DNA from: Deinococcus hopiensis KR-140 | Lineage (GTDB): Bacteria > Deinococcota > Deinococci > Deinococcales > Deinococcaceae | Direction of reading: 5' to 3' | Length of the DNA stretch: 64,000 bases | NCBI GenBank assembly: GCA_943327755.2 | Contig: CALPYF020000013.1 | Span: 15,998 to 79,997 of the forward strand | Program-made: the position numbers and the translations under genes | Part shown: piece after piece, positions 8,976 to 58,488 of the stretch | Position numbering within the stretch: position 1 is the stretch's first letter | Layout: the number at the start of each line of letters is the position of its first letter | Notes under the pieces: generated by a model | What the model saw: only the letters and a program-made list of their open reading frames with translations | The model's database searches: none | Told to the model about the DNA's origin: nothing

Positions 8976-9411
8976 GGCGGTGCTGCTCGCGAAAAAGCTG
9001 ATGACCTGCCGTCCAAGCGCGTAATAATGCGGTGTTTTCCACATGATTGATGAGGCGTCTTCATGTGTGATGTGGGTTTCGTTTGGTCGAAAAAGGGCGT
9101 TACATAAGCGTCCCATCTGGGATGTTTTGGACCCCCCGGTCGAAGTGCCGTTTTTTCCCTGGTGGTGAGGGGGAAACCGTTACATCGGCATCATTTCAAA
9201 TTGGGGATTTTATTGTGATTGGTTTTGTGGTGTGGTTCGTTTTTTACAGCATCGCATCCGGCTTTTCTGAGCGTGTCGTGAGTCGCCGCCTTTTCCGGCT
9301 CTCAGCCCATGCCTCAGCACCTTTCTGATCATGCCGACCAGGCCCACCCGACGACGCTCGGACGGAGCCGGAGCACAGCGGTGGCCCGCTCACGCGGGCC
9401 CGGCCGGGCGC

Positions 9412-9702
9412 ATGTCGAAAGTTCTCGCCAGCACTCAACTGCCCGACGGCACCACCCTCTCGTTCGACGCGGGCTTCGATCCGCCTCTCAACATCCACTT
9501 CCTGGACGTGTACCGGGAGGGGGAAGAGGACCCGGTGTTCGAGTCCCTCTTCCACCACCCGGGCGGCCGCTTCTCGTACTCCATCGCGGACCTCACGGCG
9601 GACGTGACCCGCCTCGCCGGTCGCCCCCTACCGGAGCTGACGGCGGCCATCATCGCGCTCGGTCCGGTGCCGAATGAGGTCCGCGACCTCGGCCGCCTCT
9701 AA
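9412..9702 (+). CDS. hypothetical protein (96 aa), hairpin-led
   Basis: ATG 10 nt after a hairpin; high GC3 frame; the next hairpin starts right after the stop. Confidence 0.7.
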   Translation: MSKVLASTQLPDGTTLSFDAGFDPPLNIHFLDVYREGEEDPVFESLFHHPGGRFSYSIADLTADVTRLAGRPLPELTAAIIALGPVPNEVRDLGRL

Positions 9703-9739
9703 CAGTCCTGGCCCGCGCACCGCGGGCCACGCGGCTTGC

Positions 9740-9877
9740 ATGAACCGACGCCTGAACCTCCGCGCGATCACCCTCACCGTCATCGTCACCAGCTGGGCAG
9801 GTGGCTTCGCCTTCCTGTCTCTCACCGTGTCCTCGACCATCCAGGCGAGCACCCCCGCATGGTCCGGTACCCCATGA
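9740..9877 (+). CDS. small putative membrane peptide (45 aa), hairpin-led
   Basis: MNRRLNLRAITLTVIVTSWAGGFAFLSLTVSS; ATGA overlap with the next ORF. Confidence 0.55.
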   Translation: MNRRLNLRAITLTVIVTSWAGGFAFLSLTVSSTIQASTPAWSGTP

Positions 9878-10068
9878 GTCCCCGCGAGCATGAGCGGCTC
9901 GCCCGCTCCCTCCTACAGGCGGCCCTGGATCACCAGCGCACGGCGCTCGCCTGCCCGGACGACTACCGGGCGGGCCTCGCCGCTCGCACCCTGGCCCAGG
10001 ACGCCTTGCATCACGCCCAGCTCGCCGAGCCCCGGGTGACTCCGGTGGGCGTGATCATCCGTACCTGA
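9874..10068 (+). CDS. small helical hypothetical protein (64 aa)
   Basis: MSPREHERLARSLLQAALDHQ...; translationally coupled by an ATGA overlap. Confidence 0.55.
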   Translation: MSPREHERLARSLLQAALDHQRTALACPDDYRAGLAARTLAQDALHHAQLAEPRVTPVGVIIRT

Positions 10069-10145
10069 ACAGGGCCCGGCATTCACCCTGCCCGGACCGC
10101 CTGCCGTCCAGTCCTGGCCCGCGCACCGCGGGCCACGCGGACGTC

Positions 10146-10757
10146 ATGCAAGGCACCCTGACCGGCGTCGTTCTGAATGCCACGACCACCGACACGCAGA
10201 CCACCGTGAAGCTCGCCGGGATCACCGACAACGGGCACCGGGGCGTCACCTGGATTCACACGGTGACCTTCACCGGCCCCCGCAAACTGGCCACCCTGCC
10301 CGCTGAGGGCAGCGTCGCGCGCGTCACCTGCATGGCCACCCAACAGGTCTTCCAGGGCCGCGACGGGCAGAAGGCCAGTGCCGTGAGCTTGCTCGGCGTG
10401 ACCCTCACCCCCCACGCCGGGCCGATCACGCGCAAGGGGTCCACGCCCTTCCTCCTGCAGGCCGTGAACGAGTTCCGCTTCGCCGCGTTCCTCACCCGCG
10501 ACCCTGTGCGTAAACCCATCGGCGTCACTGAAGCGCGCGTGGGCGTGCGCGACCGGAAGGGGCACACGCACTACTTCAACTGCGAAGCCTGGCGCGCCCT
10601 CGCCCCCACCCTGGGCGCCCGACGCGCCGCCGCGGAACTCACCCTCACCTGCATCCTCCGCCGCGATCGGGTGGACACGGCGGCCGGCGCGCGTGCGTTC
10701 GACGTGATGGAAGTCATCGCCCTGAACGCCCAGGGGGTCGCCAATGCCGCAGACTGA
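10146..10757 (+). CDS. ssb: single-stranded DNA-binding protein-like, two OB folds (203 aa)
   Basis: Second half AVNEFRFAAFLTRDP...HYFNCEAWRALA matches the SSB OB-fold pattern; first half is a second beta-rich OB-like unit. No acidic C-terminal tail. Hairpin-led. Confidence 0.65.
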   Translation: MQGTLTGVVLNATTTDTQTTVKLAGITDNGHRGVTWIHTVTFTGPRKLATLPAEGSVARVTCMATQQVFQGRDGQKASAVSLLGVTLTPHAGPITRKGSTPFLLQAVNEFRFAAFLTRDPVRKPIGVTEARVGVRDRKGHTHYFNCEAWRALAPTLGARRAAAELTLTCILRRDRVDTAAGARAFDVMEVIALNAQGVANAAD

Positions 10758-10887: not shown

Positions 10888-10971
10888 CCGGTGGGGGGAG
10901 GCCACGCGCCTCCCTCCCTTTCTTCATGCTCCGCCAGTCGTGGCCCGCGCACCGCGGGCCAGGCCGCTCGC

Positions 10972-11550
10972 ATGAGCCCACCCAACCTCATCCTGCACGC
11001 CACGACCTGCCTCACCCTGCTCGGCCTCACCGCGAAAGCCGCCCTCCGGGCCTTGGAGGACTCGTGGCAGATCCTCGACGCGGAGACAGGCCGCGCCCTC
11101 GGCACCCTCCAGGGCGACCGGGTCACCGTGGACGCGGCCACCCTCCTCCCGGAGGAACTGGACCGCTGCGTCGCCCCTCTGCTCGGCCCCCCACTCGCCA
11201 CGCGTTTCTTCCAGCAGTTCCCCGCCGCGAGCGGTGACTGGTTCCTCTGTGTGCAGGGTGGGCACGAGATCTCCCTGCGCGCTCGGGATGACACGGTTCT
11301 CGCCAGCGGCCACCTGTTCGAACCCACGAGCGGCGTCCTCTTCGCCACCGTGAACACCTGGAATCCCCTCCTGCACACCCTGCTCCCTGCCCCTGTTCCG
11401 GTCGGGCCGGGCAGTAACGAGAAGCAGGCACGCCTGCTCGATTGGCGAACCCTTAACGTCACGCCCAGCATCGCTGACTCGGACACGCTCGCCTTCTACA
11501 TCTCACGGACGGCACTCGACGCACCCGTACCCGTACGGCTGCTGGTATGA
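10972..11550 (+). CDS. hypothetical protein (192 aa), hairpin-led
   Basis: ATG 10 nt after GGCCA; coding-like codon usage. Confidence 0.7.
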   Translation: MSPPNLILHATTCLTLLGLTAKAALRALEDSWQILDAETGRALGTLQGDRVTVDAATLLPEELDRCVAPLLGPPLATRFFQQFPAASGDWFLCVQGGHEISLRARDDTVLASGHLFEPTSGVLFATVNTWNPLLHTLLPAPVPVGPGSNEKQARLLDWRTLNVTPSIADSDTLAFYISRTALDAPVPVRLLV

Positions 11551-11690
11551 CCCGGGGCACGCGGCCACCCGCACCGTGCTCCTCCTCTCGCAGGCGCTCA
11601 CCCTGGAGACAGGTGAGAGTTGGCCGCACGGCCGCGCCCCGTACGTCTGAACCAGCCCTGGCCCCACCCGCGTGGGGCCAGACTGGCGTC

Positions 11691-12155
11691 ATGCTCATCA
11701 CCGTCGGCCGCCTCGGCGATTCCCACGACACTGGACACGCGGAGTACGTCGGACGAGGCCGGGGCAGCGTCCTCGGCAATCCCCTGCCCGTCATCGGACG
11801 GGGCCGCTGGACGGGCGAGGCCGCCGCGTGGACAAGTCACCTGATCCACTCGGCGCACCTCACGGGCACCGAACGCGAGCAGGCACAGCGGGCGCTGCAC
11901 CGCCTCGGCTTCGAGCAGGGAGAGGCAGCCGCGCTGTACCTGCACGTCCTGCGGGAGCAGTGCCGGACGGACACCCCACAACGCCGTGCCGTGCTGCGAC
12001 TCGCCGCCCTCGCCACGCAGGGCCCCGTGCACCTCCAGTGCTGGTGCACCCCGAAGCCGTGTCACGCGGAGCACATCCGCTCGGCCATCCTCGGCTACGC
12101 GCAGACGTTGGTCGAGAGGCGCGCGACCGCCGCACGGGCTACCGTGCTCGGCTGA
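11691..12155 (+). CDS. DUF4326 domain protein (154 aa)
   Basis: YVGRG..S..GNP N-terminal motif and L.CWC.P.PCH C-terminal motif. Hairpin-led. Confidence 0.8.
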   Translation: MLITVGRLGDSHDTGHAEYVGRGRGSVLGNPLPVIGRGRWTGEAAAWTSHLIHSAHLTGTEREQAQRALHRLGFEQGEAAALYLHVLREQCRTDTPQRRAVLRLAALATQGPVHLQCWCTPKPCHAEHIRSAILGYAQTLVERRATAARATVLG

Positions 12156-12195
12156 ACAGACCTGGCCCCGGCACGGCCGGAGCCACGCGCCGGGC

Positions 12196-12624
12196 ATGGA
12201 TCCCTACACGCTCACCCTCGCCCCGGAAGACACGTTCGAGGTCACCGCGTTCACGGCCGCGGAGTACTGCACGCCCTCCGGACACCGCCTCGGCCAACCG
12301 AACGCCACTGGCATCGTTGACGTTGCTCTCCTCTCCCGCGCGCACCGCCGCGTGGTCCGCGCCCCTGATCGGCTGTTCCTCGCGGACGTGCGCCGCGCCA
12401 CGGCCGAAGGCTGTACCGTGTGGCTCATCCACCTGCACCAGCGGCCCGCCCACGGGTACGAGATCGGCGGCGTCACCATCCTCACGCCCACCGAAGCCGA
12501 CGCCCAGGCGCTCACCGATCAGCTCGAAGCGGCACAGACGCCCGACGCGTGGGCCACCGTCACCGCGCCCTACCGCGCCGGTCTGTTCGACCTGATCAGC
12601 TCCTACCTCACCGGCGAACCCTGA
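12196..12624 (+). CDS. hypothetical protein (142 aa), hairpin-led
   Basis: ATG 10 nt after an imperfect hairpin (right arm GAGCCA). Confidence 0.7.
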   Translation: MDPYTLTLAPEDTFEVTAFTAAEYCTPSGHRLGQPNATGIVDVALLSRAHRRVVRAPDRLFLADVRRATAEGCTVWLIHLHQRPAHGYEIGGVTILTPTEADAQALTDQLEAAQTPDAWATVTAPYRAGLFDLISSYLTGEP

Positions 12625-12883: not shown

Positions 12884-12919
12884 CAGTCCTGGCCTGCGCC
12901 CGCAGGCCACGTCCCTCCC

Positions 12920-13375
12920 ATGCTCAGCCGATTCGATCTCGTCGCCGATGGTCCCGATGGCCCGAACACCTGGCAGTGTGCGGTCTACGCTCCCAGTGTC
13001 ACCACCGCCCTTCAGGCCACCCGCGCTGCTGGGTATGCCGGGACGAGTGCCTGGGACCTCGGGCAATTCGAACGGTCGGAAGGCATGACGCCCTTCGTGC
13101 TCACCCCCTCTCAGGCGTGGGACGTCCGGGGTGAGCGGCACGCATCGTTCGGGCGTGCCCAGCTCCTCTCCCCCCTTCTGCACGTCCACCTCCCTCCCGG
13201 AGACGTCGGCACGTCCAGTGAACTGCTGACGCGCTGGACCTTCCCCTCAGACATCCGGGCTCTGCTCGAAGCGGACGCGGGGAGCCCGGGCGAGGTGCAC
13301 TGGATCTGGATGCACGGCGAGCTGCTGGGACGCCCTGCTGATCAGCCCGTCCGGGTTGTGGCACGACCCTCGTGA
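12920..13375 (+). CDS. hypothetical protein (151 aa), hairpin-led
   Basis: ATG 10 nt after TGGCCTGCG-CC-CGCAGGCCA. Confidence 0.7.
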   Translation: MLSRFDLVADGPDGPNTWQCAVYAPSVTTALQATRAAGYAGTSAWDLGQFERSEGMTPFVLTPSQAWDVRGERHASFGRAQLLSPLLHVHLPPGDVGTSSELLTRWTFPSDIRALLEADAGSPGEVHWIWMHGELLGRPADQPVRVVARPS

Positions 13376-13431
13376 CGCGGCGACCTGCCCATGAAGTGCT
13401 GGCCCCCTGCGTCGGGGGCCACCTCGCCTGC

Positions 13432-13755
13432 ATGACCGGGGACGAAACACTGAGTGCGCAGCTGGACCGCCTGCGCGAGAGTTATGACGACGCGATAGAG
13501 GCGCTGGCCGAGCAGTTCGGCCTGATATGGACCGAGATGCACCCACGGGATGCCACGGCGCAGGGCGTCTGGCCACGCCTCACCATCGACGCCACGCCAG
13601 AGGGCACCATCACCTTCCAGGGCTTCCACTTCGAGTTCCGGACGTGCGTTCCCCTGGACTGCCGAGGGGCGTTTCTCGCGGCGGCCATCGCCCACCTGGA
13701 CGCGTACCCTCGCCACGCGTACGACTGGCAGGCGATCCCCGAAGCGGACGACTGA
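13432..13755 (+). CDS. acidic hypothetical protein (107 aa), hairpin-led
   Basis: ATG 10 nt after the hairpin; the next hairpin starts right after the stop. Confidence 0.7.
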   Translation: MTGDETLSAQLDRLRESYDDAIEALAEQFGLIWTEMHPRDATAQGVWPRLTIDATPEGTITFQGFHFEFRTCVPLDCRGAFLAAAIAHLDAYPRHAYDWQAIPEADD

Positions 13756-13792
13756 AGCCCTGGCCCCCGACCCCGGGGGCCACCTCGCCCGC

Positions 13793-14473
13793 ATGAACGG
13801 AATTCAAGCAGCTGGAGGTCGCCGACTGTGCGGCAGTGGACGCACCGCCGGGGAACTGTACCTGGAGTGCGGCCTGATGAAGGGCGGCTCGCCCATCGAG
13901 GACCGCCTCATGGACCTGCCCCTCGAGGTCGACCCAGTGGAGATGGGGGTGAGTGCCATCGGCATCAGCACCTTCACGGACGAGCATGGCGTCACGCATG
14001 TCCTGGACTGGGTGGGCGCGGACTCCTACCCGGAGATGGCGGACTTCATCGAGGAGGCGCGTCGCAAAGGCGTCAGTCGCAAGGTCAGTCGCACGGCGCC
14101 CCTGGGGGACCTCACCTCCCAGAGTTGCCTGTACCTCCTGCACCCCAGGGCCGTCGTCAAGAACGCGAGCACGCTGGCCACCCCCGACGGATTCGCCTGC
14201 CCATGCGGGAAGGGGCACACGGCGCAGGAGGGCTGCATCGGTCTGGGCTGGCACGTCCAGCCGAACGCCGGGGAGGGCCAGCGCCGACTGGCGGACGGCA
14301 CCTACCCCGTCAAGGCACCCCTCTCCCCTGCCCCGGACTACGCGCTCGGCGTGTTCATGGTCGTGCCCATCACGGCCCTCACCGTCATCCAGCACCCCGA
14401 CCCCACCGTCCAGGCCGACCGGGAGAAGCGGGCGGGACAGAGCGGCCTCCCGGTCTTCGTCGCACAGGAATAA
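13793..14473 (+). CDS. Cys/His-containing hypothetical protein (226 aa), hairpin-led
   Basis: RLCGSGR..LECG, HVLDWVG..YP..ADFIEEARRKGVSR and CPCGKGH...CIG motifs. Confidence 0.75.
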   Translation: MNGIQAAGGRRLCGSGRTAGELYLECGLMKGGSPIEDRLMDLPLEVDPVEMGVSAIGISTFTDEHGVTHVLDWVGADSYPEMADFIEEARRKGVSRKVSRTAPLGDLTSQSCLYLLHPRAVVKNASTLATPDGFACPCGKGHTAQEGCIGLGWHVQPNAGEGQRRLADGTYPVKAPLSPAPDYALGVFMVVPITALTVIQHPDPTVQADREKRAGQSGLPVFVAQE

Positions 14474-14526: not shown

Positions 14527-14605
14527 ACGCCGGGCCACGCACGGTGCGCGGTCCACCTCTTCCGGCAGTGGTGGCCCCCGGACACCCGGGGGCCATGACA
14601 TTCGT

Positions 14606-15427
14606 ATGCCGACCGATGCCCCCCCACCCCTGCTCAACGTGACCGTGCCCACGCCCTTCAGTACCGCCGTGCCCCTCGACGACCTCACCGAGGACACGCA
14701 CGGCGCCAGCAACCACCTCAAGGGCGCGCTGCGCTGCACCGGGCAACTCCAACCCATCGTGCTGGAATCCCTGCCCAGCGGCGAGTACCGCATCCGGGAT
14801 GGGAATCGCCGCGTCGCGGCCGCCCGGTCGCTCGGCTGGACGCACGTGCAGGCGGACGTGTACGCCGGACTGACCGAAGCGCAGTGGGCCCTGGTGGTCG
14901 CCGGAGTGCACAACCGCAGTGCCAACCCCGTGGAGGAAGCCCGCCTGTACGGCACGCTCACCCAGACGCTCACCGAGGCGGGCATCGCCGCGAACACCGG
15001 CGTTCCCGTGCAAGTCATCCGCGCCCGCCTGTCCCTGCTCAGCCTGCCGGGCGACGTCCTGGACCTGATCGGGACGCGCACCCTGAGCCTGAGTGTCGCC
15101 GAGCGCGCCGCGAAACTCCGGGGCGTGCACGCCGAGCGGGCCGTGCGGGAGATCCGGGAGGCGGAACAGGCGGGCAAGCCGTTCACGGCTGCGCAGCTGA
15201 AGGTGGTCACCGTGGCCCGCGCCAGCAGCCTCGGGGCGCGCCTCATGGCCGCGGCGCCGCCCCCACCCACGCTGCTGCCCCCAGAGACGATCCTCGCCGA
15301 GGAAGTCCGGGCGCTCTGCGAACGGCGGGGCGTGAGCGTGCAGGCCCTGACGCAGGTCCTCACCGGGTCGGTGCCGCCCGTGACCCCCGTGCAGGCGGCC
15401 CACGTCCACCGCGCCGTGGTGCACTGA
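14606..15427 (+). CDS. ParB/RepB/Spo0J-family protein (273 aa), hairpin-led
   Basis: GQLQPIVL...YRIRDGNRRVAAA ParB N-terminal motif, NPVEEARLY, and an HTH AGIAANTGVPVQVIRARLSLL. Confidence 0.85.
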   Translation: MPTDAPPPLLNVTVPTPFSTAVPLDDLTEDTHGASNHLKGALRCTGQLQPIVLESLPSGEYRIRDGNRRVAAARSLGWTHVQADVYAGLTEAQWALVVAGVHNRSANPVEEARLYGTLTQTLTEAGIAANTGVPVQVIRARLSLLSLPGDVLDLIGTRTLSLSVAERAAKLRGVHAERAVREIREAEQAGKPFTAAQLKVVTVARASSLGARLMAAAPPPPTLLPPETILAEEVRALCERRGVSVQALTQVLTGSVPPVTPVQAAHVHRAVVH

Positions 15428-21254: not shown

Positions 21255-21325
21255 GATGTTCATACCATCACCTGCCTCACCGAGATCCCAGCGCTGGCCC
21301 ACCGCGGGTGGGCCACGAGACGAGC

Positions 21326-22846
21326 ATGACCATCAGCACCAGCAGCGTGTTCTCCTTCAAGACGGCGAAGTTCCCTGGACTCGGGAAGGGCGGCCGGGTG
21401 CAGATCCCACAGCATCTGCACAGCCAACTCGACACGTCCAACCGGATGCGCATCATCCCGTGGGCTGCCGCTGAAGCAGTCGCCCAGGTCCTGCTGGGCC
21501 GCGTGGAGGCTGAACGCACTCCCAAGTCCCTCACCGTCCAGACCATCGACAAGGACGGGCAGCCCGTCCTCATGGCCTCCCACCCCGCCCAGGCGACGTG
21601 GGTGAATGCCGGGCAGACCGTGCGCCCGTACATCCTCCTGATCGCCGAAGCCCAGCTCGCAGCCAAGCACACCGAACTCGCCGAACGCTGGGGCGAACTC
21701 CTGCACACCATCGACCGGCACGCCGTCACCCTCCCCGCCACTGAGGATCAACTGGCCACGCTCAGCTACACCGCTGAATTCAAGGATGATCTCCAGCGCG
21801 TCCTGGACACCCTGTACTACACCGGGAAGCTCTACGCGGACACCTGCTCCTGGATCACCGGGCCCCTCTCCGCCCCCGCCGCGTGGACGCATTCCCCGGT
21901 CCTCCTCGGGCAGTCCCCCCGCCAGCCCGGCGAGCCCGGTGCGGATCTCAGCGAGGAAGGCCGCCTCACCCGGCGGGCCGCGTACGGCATCCGCGCCCTG
22001 CTCGTCGGCCCCACCGGCTGCGGGAAGACCGAACTCGGCAAGCGCGTCGCCCTGTCCACCGGTTCGACGATCGTCTCCCTCAAGGGCCGCCCCGGTCTGG
22101 AGGACCGCGACATGATTGGGTTCATCTCCCCCACCCTGCAGGGCGCCCGCTGGGTGGACGGCCCGCTCGCCCGGGCCATGCGCCTCGCGCAGCAGGGCAC
22201 ACGCACCACCCTCCTGATCGACGAGCTGCTCCGCCTGGACGCGTACCACCGCAACGCCCTGATCGGCCTGCTCGACGACGTCAGCGCCACGGAACTCAAA
22301 GCCACGCTGGGCGTCGACGTGCCCGACGGGCGGTACTACACCCTGGATCTCCCCGGCGCCGGTGAAGTCCTGTACGCCCCGACGCGCCTACTCAGCGTCC
22401 TGTGCACCACGAACGCCGGCAGCTCGTACACGCAGAGCGGCGAGCTCGACCCCGCCCTCCTGCGGCGCTTCCAGCGTGTCATGTTCGTCTCGTACCCTGC
22501 CGAGGCGGTCATCATGCCGGTCTACGCGAAGGCGGCCACACCTGGGACGGCGCGCGTCGCGTACGCCCTGGAAGTGGCCACGCGCAGCATGACGGTCGAC
22601 CAGGGGCAGCTGCTCGCCCGGCCCATGAACACCGGCATCACCCTGAACTTCCTCGCGGAAGTGCAGGACCTCGTCCAGGCGGGCCTCTCCGAGACCAACG
22701 CCTTGCGCGAGGCGCTGCTCGTCACCGTCACGCCGTTCTGCTGCGAGTTGACCGACGAGGGCCTGCCCGACCCGGCGGCCGTGAATGCCCTGAAGGCCCG
22801 CCTGGAAGAGCAACTCCGCAAGGGCCTGCTTCACAAGGCCGCGTGA
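21326..22846 (+). CDS. MoxR-like AAA+ ATPase with an N-terminal extension (506 aa), hairpin-led
   Basis: Walker A GPTGCGKT, WVDGPL, Walker B LIDE, sensor TTN, and LDPALLRRF Arg finger. Confidence 0.85.
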   Translation: MTISTSSVFSFKTAKFPGLGKGGRVQIPQHLHSQLDTSNRMRIIPWAAAEAVAQVLLGRVEAERTPKSLTVQTIDKDGQPVLMASHPAQATWVNAGQTVRPYILLIAEAQLAAKHTELAERWGELLHTIDRHAVTLPATEDQLATLSYTAEFKDDLQRVLDTLYYTGKLYADTCSWITGPLSAPAAWTHSPVLLGQSPRQPGEPGADLSEEGRLTRRAAYGIRALLVGPTGCGKTELGKRVALSTGSTIVSLKGRPGLEDRDMIGFISPTLQGARWVDGPLARAMRLAQQGTRTTLLIDELLRLDAYHRNALIGLLDDVSATELKATLGVDVPDGRYYTLDLPGAGEVLYAPTRLLSVLCTTNAGSSYTQSGELDPALLRRFQRVMFVSYPAEAVIMPVYAKAATPGTARVAYALEVATRSMTVDQGQLLARPMNTGITLNFLAEVQDLVQAGLSETNALREALLVTVTPFCCELTDEGLPDPAAVNALKARLEEQLRKGLLHKAA

Positions 22847-22922
22847 GGCGGTGGCCCCCTCCGGGGGGCTTTCTTCATGTGGGGAGTTCTGGCCCCCAGA
22901 CGCTGGGGGCCACGGTATACGC

Positions 22923-24422: not shown

Positions 24423-24468
24423 ACCCGGCAGGAGTGGCCCAGCCAGGGGGCTGGGCCACGGGAGGCGT

Positions 24469-26056: not shown

Positions 26057-26089
26057 GTGTGGCCTCCTGGCGGAGGCCAGGTCAGGGTC

Positions 26090-40694: not shown

Positions 40695-40731
40695 AGGGCT
40701 GGCCCACCTTCGGGTGGGCCACCGCGCGCGC

Positions 40732-42977: not shown

Positions 42978-43022
42978 AGCGGGGAGTTCTGGCCCACCGC
43001 CAGGGTGGGCCAGTGCACGCGC

Positions 43023-43751
43023 ATGCCCTTCCAGGTCACGTACCCGCCCAGCCCCGCCGAGCTCATGCCCCAGCCCCTCCTGCCCACCCTCGCTCTGCTG
43101 ATCTACGAGCGCGCCACTCAGCACGGCAGCCAGGTCCTCCTGCGCAAGCACGCCGTGCGGCAGGACGAGAGGGCGTGCACGCTCGGACCCGCCCAGGCGC
43201 TCACCCGGGCCGACGTCAACGACCTCACGCGCCTCCTCGCTGGTCAGGGCCTGCAGCGCACCCGCCCCACGACCCTCGCGGTCGGCCTCCAGTGCGTCGC
43301 CTGGTGGCGGCCGCCCGGCCTACGCCCCATGCTCTTCGACGCAAAGTACGCCCAGTCGAGGAGCGTCGCGCGCCTGTCCGGCATTCCGGTCCCTCACCCA
43401 GGTCTGGTCTTCGTCGCCACGCCCGGTACGCTCAAGGTGTACGCCGTCACCGGGAACGGGCTTCCCACGGACGACACGCCCCTGATGCACGCCCCGTACT
43501 GGAACATGTTCCCCGGCGGGCAGCTCTGCCGCGGTACCACCCGCTACCCCGACTCGTGCACACCTGCCGCGCAGGACGATTGGGAGACCGCGTTCTTCCA
43601 GTCCGTGTTTACCGGCCCCAGCCGCACTGACCGGTACATGAACTGGGGCAAGAGCTACGAGGAACTCCTCAACGCGGCCCTCGCCGCCGGGACGTTCCCC
43701 GAACAGGTCCTCATTCCCGCTGGACTGACCCTCGCCCAGGCCCTGAGCTGA
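43023..43751 (+). CDS. PRTRC system protein B (E2 family D-like), copy 2 (242 aa), hairpin-led
   Basis: VPHPGLVF...LMHAPYWN....LCRG...WETAFFQSVFT. Confidence 0.85.
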   Translation: MPFQVTYPPSPAELMPQPLLPTLALLIYERATQHGSQVLLRKHAVRQDERACTLGPAQALTRADVNDLTRLLAGQGLQRTRPTTLAVGLQCVAWWRPPGLRPMLFDAKYAQSRSVARLSGIPVPHPGLVFVATPGTLKVYAVTGNGLPTDDTPLMHAPYWNMFPGGQLCRGTTRYPDSCTPAAQDDWETAFFQSVFTGPSRTDRYMNWGKSYEELLNAALAAGTFPEQVLIPAGLTLAQALS

Positions 43752-43794
43752 CACCCGAGAGTCCTGGCCCCCTGACGGGGGCCACGCGGGCATC

Positions 43795-44583
43795 ATGCAC
43801 ACCCTGACCTTCGACCCCAAGGACCCCGTCCGCCTCATTCTCGTGGGCGTTGGCGGCACCGGCAGCCTCATGCTCACCCACCTCGTCCGACTCGACCAGG
43901 CCATCCGCGCCCTCGGCGGCGCCGGCCTGCACGTCACGGCCTTCGATCCGGACGTGGTCAGTGAAACGAACCTCACCCGGCAGAACTTCGCCCCCGCCGA
44001 CATCGGCCGCCATAAGGCCGTCGTGCTCGTCGAGCGCTGCAACCTGTACGCGGGCCTGTGCTGGGACGCGTACCCCCGTACCCTCCAGGACGGGGACGTG
44101 AAGGGTGCGCACGTCGTCATCAGCTGCGTGGACAGCGCCCAGAGCCGCCGGGCCATCCACGCCGCCTTCCGCTCCCAGCCCCCGCAGTACTGGCTGGACT
44201 GCGGGAACGACGCGGCCACCGGGCAGGTCATCCTCGGGCAGGTCCGTCAGAGTCCGGCGCGCCTCCCGCACGTCCTGGACCGCGACCCCACCATGCACAC
44301 GGGCGTGGATGATGACCGCCCCAGCTGCTCGGCCGCGGAGGCCCTGACCCGTCAGCACCTGTTCATCAATCCGGCCGTCGCCCTCCAGGCGGTGCAGCTC
44401 CTCGGTGAACTCCTCCTGAACGCGAAGACCCCCACGTGCGGGGCGTTCATCAACCTCGCTGAGCCACTGCGCGTCGTGGCGCTCCCCGTGCCCGAGGGAC
44501 AGCCCGACGTCCCGCGTGCCCGCCGCCCCAAGCCCCTACTCAAAGCCCGCCGGGAACGCCGTCCCCGCCGTCCCGCCGCATGA
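43795..44583 (+). CDS. PRTRC system ThiF-family (E1-like) protein (262 aa), hairpin-led
   Basis: GVGGTGS, D.VSETNLTRQ.F...DIG..KA, SCVD, WLDCGN and SCSAAEAL..Q.LFIN. Confidence 0.9.
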   Translation: MHTLTFDPKDPVRLILVGVGGTGSLMLTHLVRLDQAIRALGGAGLHVTAFDPDVVSETNLTRQNFAPADIGRHKAVVLVERCNLYAGLCWDAYPRTLQDGDVKGAHVVISCVDSAQSRRAIHAAFRSQPPQYWLDCGNDAATGQVILGQVRQSPARLPHVLDRDPTMHTGVDDDRPSCSAAEALTRQHLFINPAVALQAVQLLGELLLNAKTPTCGAFINLAEPLRVVALPVPEGQPDVPRARRPKPLLKARRERRPRRPAA

Positions 44584-45814: not shown

Positions 45815-45852
45815 CGTAGCCCTGGCCCCCTGCCCGGGGGCCACGGACGCGT

Positions 45853-46230
45853 ATGAGCGAACTCAGCCTTCTGGACCACATGGCCCGCACTCACTTCCCC
45901 GCTGAACCGGCGTGGCAGGCCCGCCGGGCCCTCATCGACTTGCTGGATGACCTGGATCACGAGACGCTGCGCACCCTCCGCGTCCAGCGGCACCAGGCAC
46001 CGAACGCGCCGGACGCCCCCGCACTCGAACAGGGCACGCTTGGCGCCCTGATCGAGGACTACGTGCACACCAACCCAGGAGTCACCGCCGTGGAGGTGCA
46101 GCAGGCCTTCCCACACGCCCACCCCGGTAACATCACCGACGTGCTCGCCGACTTCAGGGCGAGCAGGCGGGTGCGCGTGATTCACAAGCACCTGTACCCC
46201 TGGTCGCCCGCCGCAGTCTCCACCCCGTGA
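45853..46230 (+). CDS. hypothetical protein with a possible C-terminal wHTH (125 aa), hairpin-led
   Basis: LIEDYVHTNPGVTAVEVQQAF...ITDVLADF..RRV pattern. Confidence 0.7.
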   Translation: MSELSLLDHMARTHFPAEPAWQARRALIDLLDDLDHETLRTLRVQRHQAPNAPDAPALEQGTLGALIEDYVHTNPGVTAVEVQQAFPHAHPGNITDVLADFRASRRVRVIHKHLYPWSPAAVSTP

Positions 46231-46265
46231 AGCGCTGGCCCCCAGCTGGGGGCCACCCCGCACGC

Positions 46266-47003
46266 ATGAGCGCCACCATCACCATCTCCACCGAGCGCAC
46301 CCAGCGCGCTGCCCCCGCCCTGCACGAACCGGTCCTCGCCCTGGTCCTGTACGCGCCCGGCGGCCAGGACGGCCTGAACAGCGCGTACACCCGCAAGCAC
46401 CGCATCCGGCACGACAGCCGTGGCCGGGCCATGCTGGGCGCCGCGCAGGCGCTGACCCACGAGGACGCCCGTGACCTCCTGATGACCCTGGGCGGCCGGG
46501 CTCTCACCCCCACCCGAGAGAACACGCTGGCCACCTCACCCACCGCGTGCGCCTGGTGGATCCCCACCGGGGAACGAGCCCTCCTGTTCAACCCCAAGTA
46601 CGCCCAGGCCGGCAGCGTGGCCCGCTTCTTTGGGCAATCCGTGCCCCACCCACCGCTGGTCTTCATTGCTGGGCCGGGCAGCCTGAGCGTGTACGCCCTC
46701 CGGGAGAACACGCGCCCCACCCTGGACACGCCCGTGTGCCACGCGCCGTTCTGGAACATCTTCCCCAGCGGACAGGTGTGCCGGGGGTCCACCGCGTACC
46801 CGCAAGCCTGCACGCCGGACACGCAACCGGACTGGGAGGCGGTGTTCTTCCAGTCGGAGTTCACCGGGCCGAGCCGCACCGACCGGTACATGAACTGGGG
46901 GAAGAGCTACGAGGAACTGCTGGACGCGGCGCAGGCGCAGGGCACGTTCCCGGCCGAGGTGCTCGTGGACGCGGGGAAGACCCTCGGGCAGATCCTGACC
47001 TGA
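46266..47003 (+). CDS. PRTRC system protein B (E2 family D-like), copy 3 (245 aa), hairpin-led
   Basis: VPHPPLVF...VCHAPFWN....VCRG...WEAVFFQSEFT. Confidence 0.85.
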   Translation: MSATITISTERTQRAAPALHEPVLALVLYAPGGQDGLNSAYTRKHRIRHDSRGRAMLGAAQALTHEDARDLLMTLGGRALTPTRENTLATSPTACAWWIPTGERALLFNPKYAQAGSVARFFGQSVPHPPLVFIAGPGSLSVYALRENTRPTLDTPVCHAPFWNIFPSGQVCRGSTAYPQACTPDTQPDWEAVFFQSEFTGPSRTDRYMNWGKSYEELLDAAQAQGTFPAEVLVDAGKTLGQILT

Positions 47004-47476: not shown

Positions 47477-47535
47477 TGCTGCACCGCCCGCCCAAGAGTG
47501 ATGGCCCCCGGGCGTGCCGGGGGCCACGGGCACGC

Positions 47536-47910
47536 ATGGCCCAGACCACACAACGTCCATCCCGGTTCATCCCTGGGGAAGTCCGCGCCGTGCAGGGCGA
47601 TCAGACCCAGACCGTGCCCTGCGTCCGTCTCGCTGACCTGCCCGGCGCTGCACTGCACCGCATGCAGGGTGACGCCGGGTGGGCCCTCACGCATGAACGC
47701 TCCGGGCTCGCCATCCGCGCCCTGCTGCCCACGGAACGCGTCGGGCGGCGGCTGATGCGTCGCCTCGCCGGGCACAACTTCGACCGGGAGCAGGCCGAAA
47801 TCATCCGGGACGAGGAGCTCACCGCTGACGTGCTCGGCCACGCATCCCAGCTCACCGGCGAGCAGCTGTACGCCCACAACCCCGACGGGACCTGGACGCT
47901 GACGTTCTGA
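47536..47910 (+). CDS. hypothetical protein (124 aa), hairpin-led
   Basis: ATG 9 nt after the hairpin. Confidence 0.7.
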   Translation: MAQTTQRPSRFIPGEVRAVQGDQTQTVPCVRLADLPGAALHRMQGDAGWALTHERSGLAIRALLPTERVGRRLMRRLAGHNFDREQAEIIRDEELTADVLGHASQLTGEQLYAHNPDGTWTLTF

Positions 47911-51408: not shown

Positions 51409-51466
51409 TCGACGTGACGTCCTCGCAGCACTGGCCCACACCGGGGGTGTGGGCCAGGACGGCAGC

Positions 51467-51973
51467 ATGCTTACCCCTCTGACGATCAGCGTCCCCGGCG
51501 CTCACAAGCCCGCTCCCACCCCTCAGCAGGCCCTCGAGGACCTCCGCAAGGTGGCCCGGCACCGCCCCGCCCTGCGCCTGCGCCTCAAACGCCTCGCGCG
51601 CCTGCTCGCCGCTGGCCGCGCCCTGAAACTCACCGGCGACCCCTGCCGCGTCCAGGCCACCGTCACGGCCCTGCGCGCCTACGCCGCAGAGGGACCTGTG
51701 GTGCTCACGGCCGTCACCCCCGACGACATCCTCGCCGGTCTCACGCGTGGACCCGTGCGGGTCAGCGTGCACGACCAGGACGGCTGGCCCATCTGCGAGT
51801 ACCGCCTGTCGCACGCCACGGCTGGCGTGGACATCCTCTGCCGGGACGGCCGCAGCCGCTTCCTGCCACGTGACGAGTTCCGCGCGCAGTTCCGCCTCGC
51901 AATCTACACGCTCCGCGTCCCCGCCACGTGGGTCGCCGAAGATGCCCCCGTTCAGCAGGAGCAGGCCGCGTGA
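51467..51973 (+). CDS. hypothetical protein (168 aa), hairpin-led
   Basis: ATG 10 nt after the hairpin. Confidence 0.7.
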   Translation: MLTPLTISVPGAHKPAPTPQQALEDLRKVARHRPALRLRLKRLARLLAAGRALKLTGDPCRVQATVTALRAYAAEGPVVLTAVTPDDILAGLTRGPVRVSVHDQDGWPICEYRLSHATAGVDILCRDGRSRFLPRDEFRAQFRLAIYTLRVPATWVAEDAPVQQEQAA

Positions 51974-54001: not shown

Positions 54002-54039
54002 CCAGTCCTGGCCCCCTGCCCGGGGGCCACGTGAGCCGC

Positions 54040-54153
54040 ATGCTCACCGCGATCCTGTCTGTCCTGATCCCGCTCGCCCTCTGCCGCACCCTGTACGGAG
54101 GTTCCATGCACCCCACCCGCTCCAACGTCCCTTCTGCTGGGAGCCGCGCGTGA
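54040..54153 (+). CDS. small peptide (37 aa), hairpin-led
   Basis: ATG 10 nt after the hairpin; GTGA overlap with the next gene. Confidence 0.5.
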   Translation: MLTAILSVLIPLALCRTLYGGSMHPTRSNVPSAGSRA

Positions 54154-55422: not shown

Positions 55423-55467
55423 CGCACCCTGCAGTTCTGGCCCCCTCCCGGGGGCCACGTGACACGC

Positions 55468-55818
55468 ATGATCGAAGCCAACGACAACCAGCAGGTCACC
55501 CAGTCCCCGACAGCAGCACCTCAGCCCCGCTCCTCGACCGTGCAGCTGAGTGCGCTCGTTCAGGACCCTGCCACGCTCGAACGTCTCGCACTGGCCCTTC
55601 AGCACGCCCCGGACGCCCTGGCGGACGTGCTGAGTGTGGAACTGCCCGGGCTGCTGGATAGCGTGGGCGCGTACCACGTGGCCTGCCCGGGGTGCAGCGC
55701 GAAGCATGTGGAATGCACGCTCCTCGAAGCGCCGGACGAGACGTGGACGTGCCCCACCTGCGGGGTGGCGAGTGCTGCACACGACTGGATGCAGTCCCGC
55801 CGCGCGCTCCGCGCCTGA
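55468..55818 (+). CDS. zinc-ribbon protein (116 aa), hairpin-led
   Basis: CPGC...WTCPTC. Confidence 0.75.
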   Translation: MIEANDNQQVTQSPTAAPQPRSSTVQLSALVQDPATLERLALALQHAPDALADVLSVELPGLLDSVGAYHVACPGCSAKHVECTLLEAPDETWTCPTCGVASAAHDWMQSRRALRA

Positions 55819-55856
55819 CCAGCCCTGGCCCCCACTCCGGGGGCCACGCGGCCGTC

Positions 55857-56055
55857 ATGGCAAAGCTGCTGATCACTCTCGACCCCGCGTGCCCTGAATA
55901 GCTACCGCAAGCCCTCTCTCAGGCCACCGGGAGTGAGATCGTCGCCCTCGAACGCGATGGACGCACCCTCTATGCCGCGTGCCGCCGGGTGGGGCTCACC
56001 ACGGCCCTGATCGGCACGGTGCACCTGCTCGACCATCCCCTTCCGAAGGGGAATA
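55857..56055 (+). pseudogene. 5' remnant of a hairpin-led gene with an internal TAG (55899), truncated by the merR-thioesterase insertion
   Basis: MAKLLITLDPACPE*LPQALSQ...HLLDHPLPKGN. A probable 3' remnant lies at 58344-58454. Confidence 0.6.
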
Positions 56056-56220: not shown

Positions 56221-57495
56221 CTACTCCCAGATTGAGCGGAGCGTGTCCACCCTCGCCTGCCAGGCCAGCACTTGCAGGTGGGCATTGGCCTGATCCTGAC
56301 CACCCATCGCCGTCCAGGGCACCGAGATGTAGGTGGGGAGCCCTGGCAGGCTGAGCGAATGTCCCGCGGCAGGGTCAGTGAGATGCTGTACGGGCAACTT
56401 GGCCTGTTCACGCCTGAACTGGGCCACCTGGCTTAACTCCATGGCAGGCCAGACCTGATCCTCACCTCCACTGACCAGCAGAACCGGACCGGCAATCCTC
56501 TCGACCGGGATAGTCGCTACCGCGATGTCCTCCCTAGATGCCCGCGCCACTGCTTCCCGGTGAATGGGCGTCATGTTATAGGGGCCTGATCCACCGAAGA
56601 ACGCCGACCAGTCCGTCTGGTAGGGAATATAGGGGAGGGGATTGCCGCCCCATGCCCACGAGGACATCGGCTGACCCGCCGGAAACTGCCTGGTCCGGTC
56701 AATCCCCTCAAAGATCAGCCCGCTAGAAGCGATGGCCGCCACGGCACCCACGTCTGAAGGGAACGTAGACCCGATGAGCAACGCGGCTTCCGCTCCCTTG
56801 GACGCGCCGGTCACGCTGACACGGCGCCCGGCCACTTCGGGCCGGGCGCGCAGCCAACAGAGGGCGTCATGGAAGTATTCCAGGGGAATATTGATCAGAT
56901 CGGCAGGCAGCGTGGAGTGTGGAACGCCGAAATAGGCCAGATTGAGGACTATCAAGCCCTCAGATGCCAGGAGGGCGGCCACGGTGTCATACAGGCCCCC
57001 TTCTGAACCCCCCAGAAAGAGACACGCTCCACGCAGGTCTCGCCCGGAGGCCGGTGCCAAGAGTTGCCCGTACAGCCCGTTGTCACGCACATCCTCCACC
57101 TGAAGGTCAGGCCAGCGGGAGAGACGCCGCGTGGTCGCTCGGGCCTGTTCCTGATCACCCACCGTGAGAGAAAGCGTCAGGTCGTACCCACCTGGCGGCA
57201 GTTCGAAGAACGCTGGAAAGAGGTCAGGGCGCGGTCGCAAGCTCCAGATCAGACCGGAAGGGTTGATCCCCTGGTAGCTGCCGTCCAGGGCAGGATCGCG
57301 GGCCAGATTGAGCTGCCCGTCACCCCTCGTTCTGAAGCTCGCTGAGGACCGCCACACCTCACCGTGCAGATCGGTCGTTTCGGCCGTGACAGTGACTCCG
57401 GTAAGCGGAGGCAGATCACTGGCTTGAAGGTTGAATGGGGCGGACAGGAGCGCGTCGGGTGTGACGTTCAGCAGCATAGGGAACCTCTCCGGCAC
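56221..57495 (-). CDS. acyl-CoA thioesterase / BAAT family hydrolase (424 aa)
   Basis: N-terminal bile-acid hydrolase-type domain (G.Y.G..P.GL.WS), GGSEGG, nucleophile GASKGAE, D..WP and AGH. Confidence 0.9.
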   Translation of the reverse strand: MPERFPMLLNVTPDALLSAPFNLQASDLPPLTGVTVTAETTDLHGEVWRSSASFRTRGDGQLNLARDPALDGSYQGINPSGLIWSLRPRPDLFPAFFELPPGGYDLTLSLTVGDQEQARATTRRLSRWPDLQVEDVRDNGLYGQLLAPASGRDLRGACLFLGGSEGGLYDTVAALLASEGLIVLNLAYFGVPHSTLPADLINIPLEYFHDALCWLRARPEVAGRRVSVTGASKGAEAALLIGSTFPSDVGAVAAIASSGLIFEGIDRTRQFPAGQPMSSWAWGGNPLPYIPYQTDWSAFFGGSGPYNMTPIHREAVARASREDIAVATIPVERIAGPVLLVSGGEDQVWPAMELSQVAQFRREQAKLPVQHLTDPAAGHSLSLPGLPTYISVPWTAMGGQDQANAHLQVLAWQARVDTLRSIWE

Positions 57496-57522
57496 GGCAC
57501 GGCCGGGTGGTGGAAGGTGAGT

Positions 57523-58296
57523 TCAGTTCAGCAGGAAGCCGAGTTCGGTGCCCTCTGGGGTGTCCAGGGTGTAGGCAGAACCTGGGTGGTGGCCGTCCTG
57601 ACTGGCCGCGAGGTAGATGGCGCCATACGTGGCGCTGAACGTGCGCCAGTCGTCCCGGTGGAGCGCGCAGACCACGGGAGTTTCCGGGAGGGTCATGAAG
57701 CGGACGCGGCCCTGTCCGACCAGTGGCTCAGCCACAGGGAGGCACACCTCGGTCTGGAGAGGACCGCTGAAGTAGTCCTGCCCGTGGTAAAGGCCGAAGT
57801 CCATGCCCTGCACCTGAACCCCAGCGGTCTGGGCGTGCTGGCGTAACGTCCAGACGCTCTGGCGGTAGTAGGTGTCAAAGCTCTCCGCTTCGGCATTCAT
57901 GGTGAGACTCAGGACATGCTGCGCCTCCCAGCAGCGGTACCGGACGCTCACGCTGGGTAGCACCCGCCGTCCATTCAGTAGTTCCCCTACCTCCAGCAGC
58001 AGTTCACGTTTTCTCTGAAACTGTTCGATGAGGCGTCGCTCGTGCCGTTCGAGAATCGCCGTGGCCTGCTCCGGGGAACCGCTGAGAAGGTCGTTTAATT
58101 CATTCAGGGGAAGGTCCAGGGCGCGCAGATGGGCGAACCTCTGGCCGAGCGGAATCTGTTCCGGGGTGTAGTACCGGTACCCGTTGTCCTGATCAATCTG
58201 GGCAGGCGAGAGGATTCCGCTGTCGGCATAGAACCGGAGTGCGGAGACACTGAGGCCGACCAGGGACGCAAACTGTCCGATGGAGAGCAGTTTCAT
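57523..58296 (-). CDS. MerR-family regulator with a GyrI-like effector domain (257 aa)
   Basis: LSIGQFASLVGLSVSALRFY...NGYRYY and a C-terminal effector domain. AGGAGG RBS. Confidence 0.92.
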   Translation of the reverse strand: MKLLSIGQFASLVGLSVSALRFYADSGILSPAQIDQDNGYRYYTPEQIPLGQRFAHLRALDLPLNELNDLLSGSPEQATAILERHERRLIEQFQRKRELLLEVGELLNGRRVLPSVSVRYRCWEAQHVLSLTMNAEAESFDTYYRQSVWTLRQHAQTAGVQVQGMDFGLYHGQDYFSGPLQTEVCLPVAEPLVGQGRVRFMTLPETPVVCALHRDDWRTFSATYGAIYLAASQDGHHPGSAYTLDTPEGTELGFLLN

Positions 58297-58314
58297 GCTT
58301 ACCTCCTAGGCGTC

Positions 58315-58345
58315 AGTGTGAAGTCTCAGGCCGCTTGAGAGTCAA
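58315..58345 (-). promoter_or_regulatory. MerR-type promoter/operator
   Basis: On the minus strand TTGACT-N19-CACACT, with the dyad TCTCA-N7-TGAGA in the 19-bp spacer. Confidence 0.75.
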
Positions 58346-58454
58346 GGGCAACACCCCAAGGTGTCTGCGGTTACCCGTTGTTCGTACCCCCGGGGCACGC
58401 CAGGACATGCGCGTGACCCTGACGCCCGAGCACGTGGACGCCCAGGTGGCGTGA
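58344..58454 (+). pseudogene. probable 3' remnant of the gene starting at 55857
   Basis: KGNTPRCLRLPVVRTPGARQDMRVTLTPEHVDAQVA*. Its stop abuts the next hairpin, as for intact genes. Confidence 0.5.
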
Positions 58455-58488
58455 AGCCCTGGCCCCGCCCCGGGGCCACGCCTCACGG

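Follow-up and report, generated by a model that had tools for sequence, protein, structure and literature searches.

To our knowledge, the only well-studied hairpin promoters, those of phage N4, need a special phage polymerase. Frpo, a promoter of plasmid single-stranded DNA (ssDNA), is a long imperfect hairpin that rebuilds −35/−10 boxes, occurs in one or few copies per plasmid and gives leadered transcripts. In the early promoters of N4, the stem contains conserved bases that are required, whereas pairing is enough for the remainder of the stem (PMC4496689). At site ssiA of plasmid RSF1010, a 6-nt 5′ tail is bound specifically; a hairpin of 21 nt follows, and 3′ of it the start lies at the T of a GTG (PMC8567376). 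In Deinococcus, about one third of genes carry TANNNT 6–7 bp before the open reading frame (ORF), giving leaderless mRNAs for which a −35 element is apparently unneeded (PMC12340547). Here we analyse a hairpin element in 64,000 nt of Deinococcus hopiensis KR-140 (assembly GCA_943327755.2, contig CALPYF020000013.1, positions 15,998–79,997), referred to below as the window, whose own numbering is used unless another sequence is named. By its gene content, the window is part of a conjugative-type plasmid. The element has the consensus AG-N3-TGGCC-(variable paired stem/loop)-GGCCA-N10(9)-ATG with a foot of the form TGGCCY…RGGCCA, and is a candidate structure-dependent start signal for the gene behind it.

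By analogy, the element would work most like the N4 hairpin promoters. The promoters of the N4 virion RNA polymerase (RNAP) likewise have a small inverted repeat upstream, of which part is conserved and part only needs to pair, at a fixed distance to the start. They act on DNA newly arrived in the cell, with the ssDNA-binding protein SSB as co-factor (PMC4496689), and the plasmid described here carries a gene with a DdrB (SSB-type) domain. The two systems differ in that N4 has 3 promoters, in which stems of 5–7 bp carry specific purines in a 3-nt loop and the hairpin is centred at −11, and a T7-like polymerase that is injected, whereas we find 30 copies with 8–12-bp stems, free loops, the foot (not the centre) at −11 and a leaderless ATG start. 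The Frpo/ssi ssDNA promoters (F, ColIb-P9; also the sso origins read by host RNAP) are similar in that co-oriented establishment and anti-defence genes lie beside transfer genes, and in their proposed action on folded ssDNA by means of no dedicated plasmid factor. Compared with Frpo, the elements are perfect hairpins of 18–27 nt, contain neither box, stand before ~30 genes and abut the ATG.

We searched the window with the pattern TGGCC-N(4–30)-GGCCA-N(8–12)-ATG, which matches 33 times versus 0.68 matches expected, a number that 0/100 shuffles reach. A stem filter of at least 7 bp leaves 28 canonical plus-strand elements with hairpins between 9709 and 58478. Their stems are perfect and 8–12 bp long, AG is found at −5/−4 from the first T of the hairpin in 28/28, and the spacer from hairpin to ATG is 10 nt in 26/28 and 9 nt in 2/28 copies. 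A covariance model built from these 28, as had been proposed together with the original prediction, recovers all 28 at 38–59 bits and adds two slightly degenerate plus-strand copies (9377–9414 and 12158–12198), giving a total of 30 plus-strand elements. On the minus strand, the model scores the palindromic core alone (~20 bits versus 38–59 bits). Therefore, the element is directional. The coordinate 9377 with which the original prediction began is the AG of the first, degenerate copy. That prediction had put the number at about 33: the elements are real, but 30 in number, the surplus pattern matches being overlaps, chance matches or minus-strand readings. The conserved AG and TGGCC/GGCCA arms it described are borne out by all canonical copies, while the position just after the previous stop codon, which it considered usual, applies to about half of the elements; these begin within ~10 nt of that stop and fill the stop-to-start gap. 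Hairpin length ranges from 18 to 27 nt (modal 20–21 nt), and the copies follow each other ~1.6 kb apart, all on one strand.

For comparisons beyond the window we pooled 125 unique elements, a set that includes related plasmids and does not represent independent samples; gene starts outside elements were called by a simple GC3 (third-codon-position GC) heuristic. Loops in the pool are mostly 3–5 nt and up to 14 nt long, stems span 7–12 bp, and AG is present in 109/112 non-window elements when the pattern does not demand it. Three other TGGCC hairpins of the window (26901, 60071, 60730) lack an ATG at the right distance and do not belong to the family. The first of these (26901–26918) holds in its loop an ATG (26910) that opens a conserved ORF of 268 amino acids (aa; phrog_15826), and was scored as terminator-like. 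The 30 elements are:

Element 1: 9377..9414, plus strand, degenerate (C for the foot A); starts a 96-aa gene; covariance-model match 26.1 bits
Element 2: 9704..9742, plus strand, hairpin 9709–9729, N10, ATG 9740; 45-aa ORF
Element 3: 10110..10148, plus strand, conserved 203-aa protein of no known function, with no Pfam or PHROG match
Element 4: 10936..10974, plus strand, directly after a terminator-like hairpin with T-rich tail (10893–10917)
Element 5: 11654..11693, plus strand, DUF4326 gene
Element 6: 12158..12198, plus strand, degenerate (C·A mismatch in the foot); ORF from ATG 12196; covariance-model match 29.3 bits
Element 7: 12885..12922, plus strand, canonical pattern
Element 8: 13395..13434, plus strand, canonical pattern
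Element 9: 13756..13795, plus strand, conserved 226-aa gene
Element 10: 14567..14608, plus strand, ParB-like gene
Element 11: 21290..21328, plus strand, AAA ATPase gene; follows the minus-strand RepA gene, no sigma70-like promoter found in the gap
Element 12: 22885..22925, plus strand, VWA gene; directly after a terminator-like hairpin with T-rich tail (22853–22870)
Element 13: 24430..24471, plus strand, toprim/primase-like gene
Element 14: 26055..26092, plus strand, 33-aa ORF, then an ATG led by a Shine–Dalgarno (SD) sequence at 26265
Element 15: 35170..35207, plus strand, canonical pattern
Element 16: 35902..35946, plus strand, longest stem (12 bp); PRTRC-E-like gene
Element 17: 37148..37184, plus strand, canonical pattern
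Element 18: 37444..37481, plus strand, Ubl (PRTRC-C-like) gene
Element 19: 39947..39986, plus strand, Prok-E2_D gene; a window-specific 1.1-kb insert ends at its 5′ edge
Element 20: 40695..40734, plus strand, a D. grandis 2.1-kb insert ends at its AG
Element 21: 42985..43025, plus strand, Prok-E2_D paralogue; its AG is the end point of a replaced segment
Element 22: 43760..43797, plus strand, ThiF/E1 gene
Element 23: 45818..45855, plus strand, 9-nt spacer
Element 24: 46231..46268, plus strand, Prok-E2_D paralogue; a D. grandis 1.7-kb insert ends just 5′
Element 25: 47497..47538, plus strand, 9-nt spacer
Element 26: 51427..51469, plus strand, canonical pattern
Element 27: 54004..54042, plus strand, 37-aa ORF whose stop overlaps (GTGA) the next ORF start
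Element 28: 55433..55470, plus strand, canonical pattern
Element 29: 55821..55859, plus strand, only a 14-aa ORF, then a lower-GC segment with minus-strand genes
Element 30: 58455..58491, plus strand, follows the minus-strand MerR gene (divergent junction)

Within the 28 canonical elements, the five foot pairs are invariant. In the four pairs that follow, 25 changes are double-sided and none is one-sided. Paired cells amount to 95% versus 37–54% when the partner column is slid, and 0/500 shuffles reach the observed score. The compensatory inner stems of variable length noted at the outset are thus confirmed, and length variation combined with strictly compensatory change agrees with the proposal of a folded structure instead of an operator of fixed spacing. 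An internal mismatch occurs in 11/125 pooled elements (5 A·C, 3 T·G and 3 others). We rejected the mismatch type as an indicator of the folding strand, since 3 T·G versus 5 A·C are too few; the numbers show only that G·U-type pairs are not favoured. The base composition of the loops is strand-symmetric, and there is no conserved loop motif or base. The bases flanking the closing T–A pair are complementary in 17% of elements versus ~36% expected from column frequencies. Because pairing beside the foot is avoided, the position of the foot is kept sharp, as a ruler would require. Folded as RNA, the hairpins are very stable (mean −18 kcal/mol). The pairing pattern favours, but does not prove, selection on a perfect DNA palindrome, or at least indicates no RNA-type tolerance. 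Between near-identical hairpins of the window and D. grandis, loops are found reverse-complemented: GCCAG at 42990–43012 (element 21) corresponds to CTGGC in D. grandis, and CTC at 35907–35933 (element 16) to GAG. Such inversion reads as the mark of a flip between the inverted arms at the level of DNA.

The element belongs to the gene that follows it. Orthologues at 50–60% identity (from D. grandis, D. gobiensis, and genomes G062, with two copies, and G094 of our set) keep AG-N3-TGGCC…GGCCA-N9/10-ATG, while inner stems, loops and lengths differ among them. Their proteins are conserved from Met1 (MSLTTAIDACDL versus MSLTRAIDTCNL; MHTLTFDP versus MHRITFDP), and the start codon is ATG in 30/30 elements. 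GGAG or GAGG is present in just 6/125 pooled spacers, in line with the earlier description of a spacer without SD; neighbouring hairpin-less genes do have GGAG. Judged by these comparisons, the hairpin-linked ATG is the true, SD-less start. Alignment of the window to D. grandis reveals four breakpoints at elements (39951, 40695, 42985, 46220), all of them at the 5′ edge, that is at AG or at the first base of the hairpin. The cargo inserted or replaced there (window 38868–39950 and 41886–42984; D. grandis locus 35053–37177 and 42887–44557) consists mostly of minus-strand or lower-GC genes. We assign the element to the downstream gene because insertions leave it attached to the downstream ATG. 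The opposite behaviour would be expected of a terminator or 3′ stabiliser of the upstream gene, and the breakpoints therefore speak against such a role.

Terminator-like hairpins with T-rich tails lie directly upstream of elements 4 and 12 and both end in …CTTTCTTCATG. Elements 11 and 30 follow minus-strand genes, and a simple sigma70-consensus scan found no promoter in those gaps. Given upstream terminators and promoter-less gaps after divergent genes, expression must restart at the element. In the two CTTTCTTCATG-tailed hairpins (10893–10927, 22853–22880), the minus-strand tail reads ATG-AAG-AAA; a small antisense ORF (MKK…) is conceivable there.

We compared the bases around the start with those of host leaderless genes. 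In this genome, TANNNT peaks 6–7 nt before the start (352/2095 candidate starts). TANNNT with a 6-nt spacer places its A at −11, the position held by the foot A in 103/125 elements. G at −2 is found in 61% of hairpin elements, 65% of canonical leaderless genes and 23% of SD-led genes, C at −1 in 75%, 71% and 67%, respectively, and A at +4 in 53% of hairpin elements and 57–61% of canonical leaderless genes. The element resembles Deinococcus-Thermus leaderless promoters in A at −11, in the −2G/−1C/+4A context and in lacking an SD (PMC12340547). It differs from them in that T-12 and T-7 are replaced by C and C/G, respectively, and in that the upstream half is a covarying hairpin. Sigma70-like hexamers are absent at the elements, as the original prediction had noted for the −35/−10 boxes. 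Three further promoter readings were tried and rejected: (i) AG as −35 element is ruled out, since the 18–27-nt hairpin range shifts AG; (ii) a sigma54-like GG/GC reading fails on spacing; and (iii) joining the flanks as if the hairpin were extruded yields no TANNNT, as derived from base profiles.

The element is conserved across a family of Deinococcus plasmids. Within the 4.6-Mb assembly of the host, 28 of 29 exact-pattern copies of hairpin plus ATG are located on this one contig and tract; the other contigs hold isolated TGGCC palindromes, just one of which has a spaced ATG. We scanned 364 genomes of the phylum. With the AG-requiring pattern, 8 of 124 other Deinococcaceae genomes have 14–29 strand-clustered copies and 3 more have 3–4; a reversed control pattern gives 0–2. 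Carriers make up ~11 of 110 Deinococcus genomes with 3–29 copies each. All multi-copy genomes are of the genus Deinococcus, and in the phylum's other families (239 genomes) the copy number never exceeds 2. Among the named carriers are D. grandis pDEGR-2, with ~94% identity to a part of the window, and plasmid P1 of D. gobiensis I-0. The G094 replicon holds several paralogous tracts, and in one region (C2:341000–366000) its hairpin-led genes diverge across a 6-kb gap, the minus-strand set reaching to 355002 and the plus-strand set beginning at 361105. Rfam gives 0 families at or above the gathering threshold in the 64-kb window, and we found no description of the element in the literature on Deinococcus leaderless genes and plasmid hairpins, PRTRC, and Frpo and leading regions, in line with the original prediction, which did not recognise it as a described element.

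A sister variant is found on D. proteolyticus pDEIPR02, whose homologous tract (NC_015162.1 25136–66245) encodes an AAA protein of 34% identity together with PRTRC, ssb, rnhA and topA. TGGCC elements are absent from this tract. Instead, the series CCCTC, hairpin (often TCCCAG…CTGGGA), 9–12 nt and ATG is found at 9 plus-strand genes, with no case on the minus strand. Examples, in tract coordinates, are:

5633–5674, plus strand, CCCTC element
7670–7710, plus strand, CCCTC element
17605–17636, plus strand, CCCTC element
36499–36541, plus strand, CCCTC element

In two cases, GGAGG-N4-ATG comes after the spaced ATG, which suggests that the spaced ATG marks the RNA 5′ end and not just a start codon. 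The arrangement thus seems to predate the TGGCC foot, feet being lineage-specific; the CCCTC variant is looser, and our confidence in it is lower. On D. ficus pDFI3, no clear pattern is apparent. Four genes of the pDEIPR02 tract (coding-sequence starts 8862, 9472, 12941, 31570, in tract coordinates) are preceded by a hairpin-less motif, CCAACCAGATTCGCAGGCAC, ~10–11 nt and ATG, which may represent another promoter class.

We tentatively favour, with slightly less than even confidence, the reading that the element is a structure-dependent promoter whose leaderless mRNAs begin at the ATG. Each element would be the start module of its downstream gene, with a foot that is read by sequence and an inner part that needs only to pair. 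The folded DNA hairpin, either an extruded cruciform or ssDNA, would position RNAP to start transcription on the first base (A) of the ATG, which lies 11 nt beyond the terminal A of the foot, and the product would be a leaderless mRNA, which Deinococcus translates efficiently. The proposal that the hairpin positions a leaderless start was already part of the original prediction and fits the fixed distance from foot to ATG, the SD-less, ATG-only starts and their leaderless-type context. From these patterns we infer the RNA 5′ end at the ATG, the folding of DNA and not of RNA, and the identity of the polymerase or factor.

The reader would be host RNAP, which we favour because no linked specificity gene was found. 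Sigma70_r2 has no match on the plasmid contig; T7-like RNAP (PF00940) has no match in the genome, but control genomes gave none either. Scans of the conserved proteins without assigned function against Pfam, NCBIfam and PHROG gave nothing useful for a specificity factor. Two minimal modules, a 39-kb contig of genome G111 that holds the AAA-to-SNF2 part and 5 elements, and a PRTRC-only cluster of genome G081 with 6 elements, have a RepA-family gene as their sole common gene in the DNA compared. So small an overlap speaks against a dedicated linked factor and in favour of host machinery. One way to reconcile reading by host machinery with absence from the chromosome is that the signal might be meaningful only in a state that the chromosome does not adopt, such as single-stranded or highly supercoiled incoming DNA; action confined to single-stranded or newly arrived DNA is a possibility that the original prediction had raised.

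Several observations weigh against this reading. T-12 and T-7, nearly invariant in Deinococcus −10 elements, are absent: in the 125 elements, C stands at −12 throughout, and −7 has C in 54%, G in 33% and T in 8%. A −35 element is lacking, and with hairpin lengths of 18–27 nt, linear DNA cannot offer a box at a fixed position upstream. Perfect pairing could also reflect selection for a very stable RNA hairpin, and GC-rich stems of 8–12 bp are not obviously extrudable at physiological supercoiling. On the chromosome, GGCCA-N10-ATG occurs at 0/2095 candidate starts. No plasmid sigma factor or T7-like polymerase was detected, with only the RepA-family gene shared by the minimal modules, and the G094 clusters in opposite orientations 6 kb apart disagree with a strict transferred-strand model.

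If the elements are promoters, they represent a compact, structure-specified start signal that dispenses with −35/−10 hexamers and controls a regulon of ~30 plasmid genes of establishment or anti-defence type, including ParB-like, AAA/VWA, primase-like, methylase-SNF2, PRTRC E1/E2/Ubl, TGT-helicase and DdrB genes. They would constitute a third solution beside the N4 hairpin promoters and the long ssDNA promoter mimics, one tied to leaderless translation, and would bear on the expression of newly arrived plasmid DNA and on the minimal features that position a bacterial RNAP. D. grandis ATCC 43672 and D. gobiensis I-0 are cultured carriers, making the element easy to test, and the invariant foot with its free interior would be a convenient portable part for Deinococcus engineering.

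A more specific version, which we consider unlikely, is a fold-back single-strand promoter on the incoming template strand that is read by host RNAP with no dedicated factor. The hairpin would replace the promoter duplex from −11 upstream, with the terminal T–A as the −11 pair, and the 5′ tail would serve as template with the start 11 nt away at the ATG. The 3′ tail, in non-template polarity, would read A(−11)-NNN-CT, where CT is the complement of AG, like TANNNT offset by one base. In this way, a single strand would suffice to turn on ~30 establishment genes while the plasmid has yet to become double-stranded. This version would account both for the absence from the chromosome and for the lack of a factor common to the minimal modules. 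The D. proteolyticus variant does not fit, however, as its tail would read AGGGAC.

Alternatives to the structure-dependent promoter differ in the molecule that folds and in the machinery that reads it. A module acting at the RNA level is possible but somewhat unlikely. Here, the tract would be transcribed as long RNAs, whose hairpins would either guide an endonuclease that cuts a fixed 10 nt downstream or dock the ribosome at the SD-less internal AUG. Cleavage would leave a leaderless mRNA with 5′-terminal AUG, while the mRNA upstream would keep the hairpin as protection of its 3′ end. The filling of the entire stop-to-start gap in about half of the genes, the stability of the hairpins as RNA and the co-orientation of all elements in one long tract are what such a module would lead one to expect, and SD-less ATG-only starts fit leaderless translation however the 5′ end arises. 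Yet the stems show neither an excess of G·U over A·C nor one-sided changes, the loops have no conserved motif and flip freely, canonical terminators stand directly upstream of two elements, and read-through transcripts after divergent genes would be antisense. Furthermore, the minimal modules share no ribonuclease candidate, and −2G matches the transcription-start context of leaderless, not SD-led, genes. Folding could also be confined to termination, as in the PeSL cassettes of T4-type phages, in which a stem-loop and a start signal precede many small accessory genes and mark the boundaries of insertion and replacement (PMC2839356). The hairpin would then be an RNA terminator or insulator, and GGCCA (−15 to −11) plus spacer a double-stranded promoter for an alternative sigma factor, with TGGCC kept only to pair with GGCCA and no DNA secondary structure needed. 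This model, to which we give a rather low probability, accounts for covariation (terminator stem) and fixed distance (promoter geometry) without exotic structures, has a parallel in the PeSL arrangement of stem-loops between genes with indels bounded by cassettes (PMC2839356), and could draw on the three non-primary sigma70-family genes of the genome. PeSLs, however, have strong sigma70-type hexamers, a terminator stem-loop and ordinary leaders; here, there are no hexamers and the spacing is a fixed 10 nt, and no T-tract follows the hairpin (0/125 with more than 4 T in the next 8 nt, 105/125 with at most 2). Separate T-tailed terminators before two elements suggest that the element itself does not terminate, and the terminator scan picks other hairpins, not the elements. 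The near-invariant AG 5 nt upstream of the foot and the invariant closing T–A pair are left unexplained, G·U pairs are not tolerated, and the absence of GGCCA-N10-ATG from the 2095 chromosomal starts means that no host regulon uses it.

Two further explanations dispense with transcription as the primary function. The elements could be priming signals of the ssi/sso type, read on ssDNA by the plasmid toprim primase or by host enzymes, which would prime complementary-strand synthesis every 1–2 kb and possibly double as mRNA starts, like Frpo. The likeness to RSF1010 ssiA/ssiB lies in a sequence-specific 5′ tail, a hairpin of ~21 nt that is not read in its upper part, and xTG initiation (PMC8567376); the element has an xTG triplet 3′ of a hairpin of modal 20–21 nt, and a 5-nt tail with invariant AG. 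The larger family plasmids, like G111, have kept a toprim/primase-like gene that is absent from the PRTRC-only module of G081, all window copies lie ~1.6 kb apart on one strand, and absence from the chromosome together with the lack of a dedicated factor fits a signal meaningful only on ssDNA. We nevertheless regard priming as improbable: the phasing of 30/30 copies on true start codons of SD-less genes is unneeded for a pure replication signal, the plasmid primase candidate is of toprim type (a weak PHROG match) and not of RepB′ type, and G094 has both orientations 6 kb apart. In RSF1010, two copies in oriV on opposite strands, not linked to genes, start 5 nt from the foot and are used by the RepB′ primase, whereas the 30 copies here occupy one strand, 11–12 nt from the foot, and all coincide with start codons. 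Finally, recombination sites or cassette boundaries (attC-like, or REP/RAYT- or IS200/IS605-like) might have assembled the array, with ATG phasing as a by-product. Known attC sites are imperfect hairpins of at least 57 nt with R/L boxes and extrahelical bases and are recognised by the IntI integrase. A conserved-foot hairpin with variable paired interior between co-oriented promoter-less genes, indel boundaries that coincide with elements and loops inverted between relatives are in keeping with this idea. We judge it very improbable, as the perfect 18–27-nt hairpins have no attC R/L boxes or extrahelical bases, gene order is conserved across plasmids at 50–60% identity, so cassettes do not shuffle, and orientation in the window is strictly single with all copies phased on ATGs, whereas REP/BIME sequences occur dispersed in both orientations. 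Neither an integrase nor a Y1-transposase domain came up in Pfam scans of ~60 proteins of window and flanks; for Y1_Tnp, the scans did not extend to the whole genome. The 5′ flank neither covaries nor pairs with the spacer, as a guide sequence would; an IS608-like guide was rejected on these grounds, the sole signal being the avoidance of pairing beside the foot.

A type IV (T4) coupling protein is encoded at 1616–5146, VirB4-like and other type IV secretion system (T4SS) genes lie upstream on the contig, and the co-oriented element tract adjoins the coupling-protein and VirB4-like genes. Maintenance genes, located in lower-GC segments, have no hairpin: RepA (19542–20846, minus strand) and ParA/ParB (27754–29723). 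Hairpin-led genes are of establishment type and include DUF4326, ParB-like, AAA, VWA, toprim/primase-like, three Prok-E2_D paralogues, ThiF/E1 and Ubl genes, among others. The same tract contains N6-methylase-SNF2, TGT-like and DEAD helicase, RNase H-like, DdrB-domain and UvrD-like genes that have no canonical element of their own here. Hairpin-less genes within the tract are either SD-led (CAGGAGACCCCC-ATG at 26265, ACAGGAGTGACC-ATG at 47943) or overlap the preceding stop. We located no oriT or relaxase; the 947-aa helicase (60746–63589) matches UvrD/Rep helicases only. GC3 skew of the tract genes was considered as a sign of a single-stranded phase and rejected as uninformative, since it lies within the chromosomal distribution (mean −0.11, sd 0.22).

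The methylase-SNF2 orthologue (1704–1740 aa) is hairpin-led in G111 (contig C33) and in G028 (contig C52), while in the window and D. grandis methylase-SNF2 follows parAB with no hairpin. The window copy (29799–35164) reads as two overlapping ORFs, 29799–31307 and 30992–35164. Element 29 is probably a remnant. The lower-GC segment behind it (after 55821–55901; segment 56221–58296) contains minus-strand BAAT-like hydrolase and MerR genes. In genome G065, the orthologue of element 29 and the next element are ~1.2 kb apart, and on this basis the gene behind element 29 was probably displaced by insertion.

Two further proteins are encoded beside the T4SS. A 735-aa protein, conserved on D. gobiensis P1 and the G062 plasmids and with no family match, was considered as specificity factor and rejected, as it is missing from three hairpin-bearing genomes. 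It is followed by the gene of a 519-aa protein (same contig 4594–6153, ~10 kb left of the window), residues ~330–455 of which match the N-terminal coiled coil of GreA/GreB (Pfam 1.8e-08, TIGR01462 1.6e-11). This protein would be a plasmid-borne factor that binds the secondary channel of RNAP.

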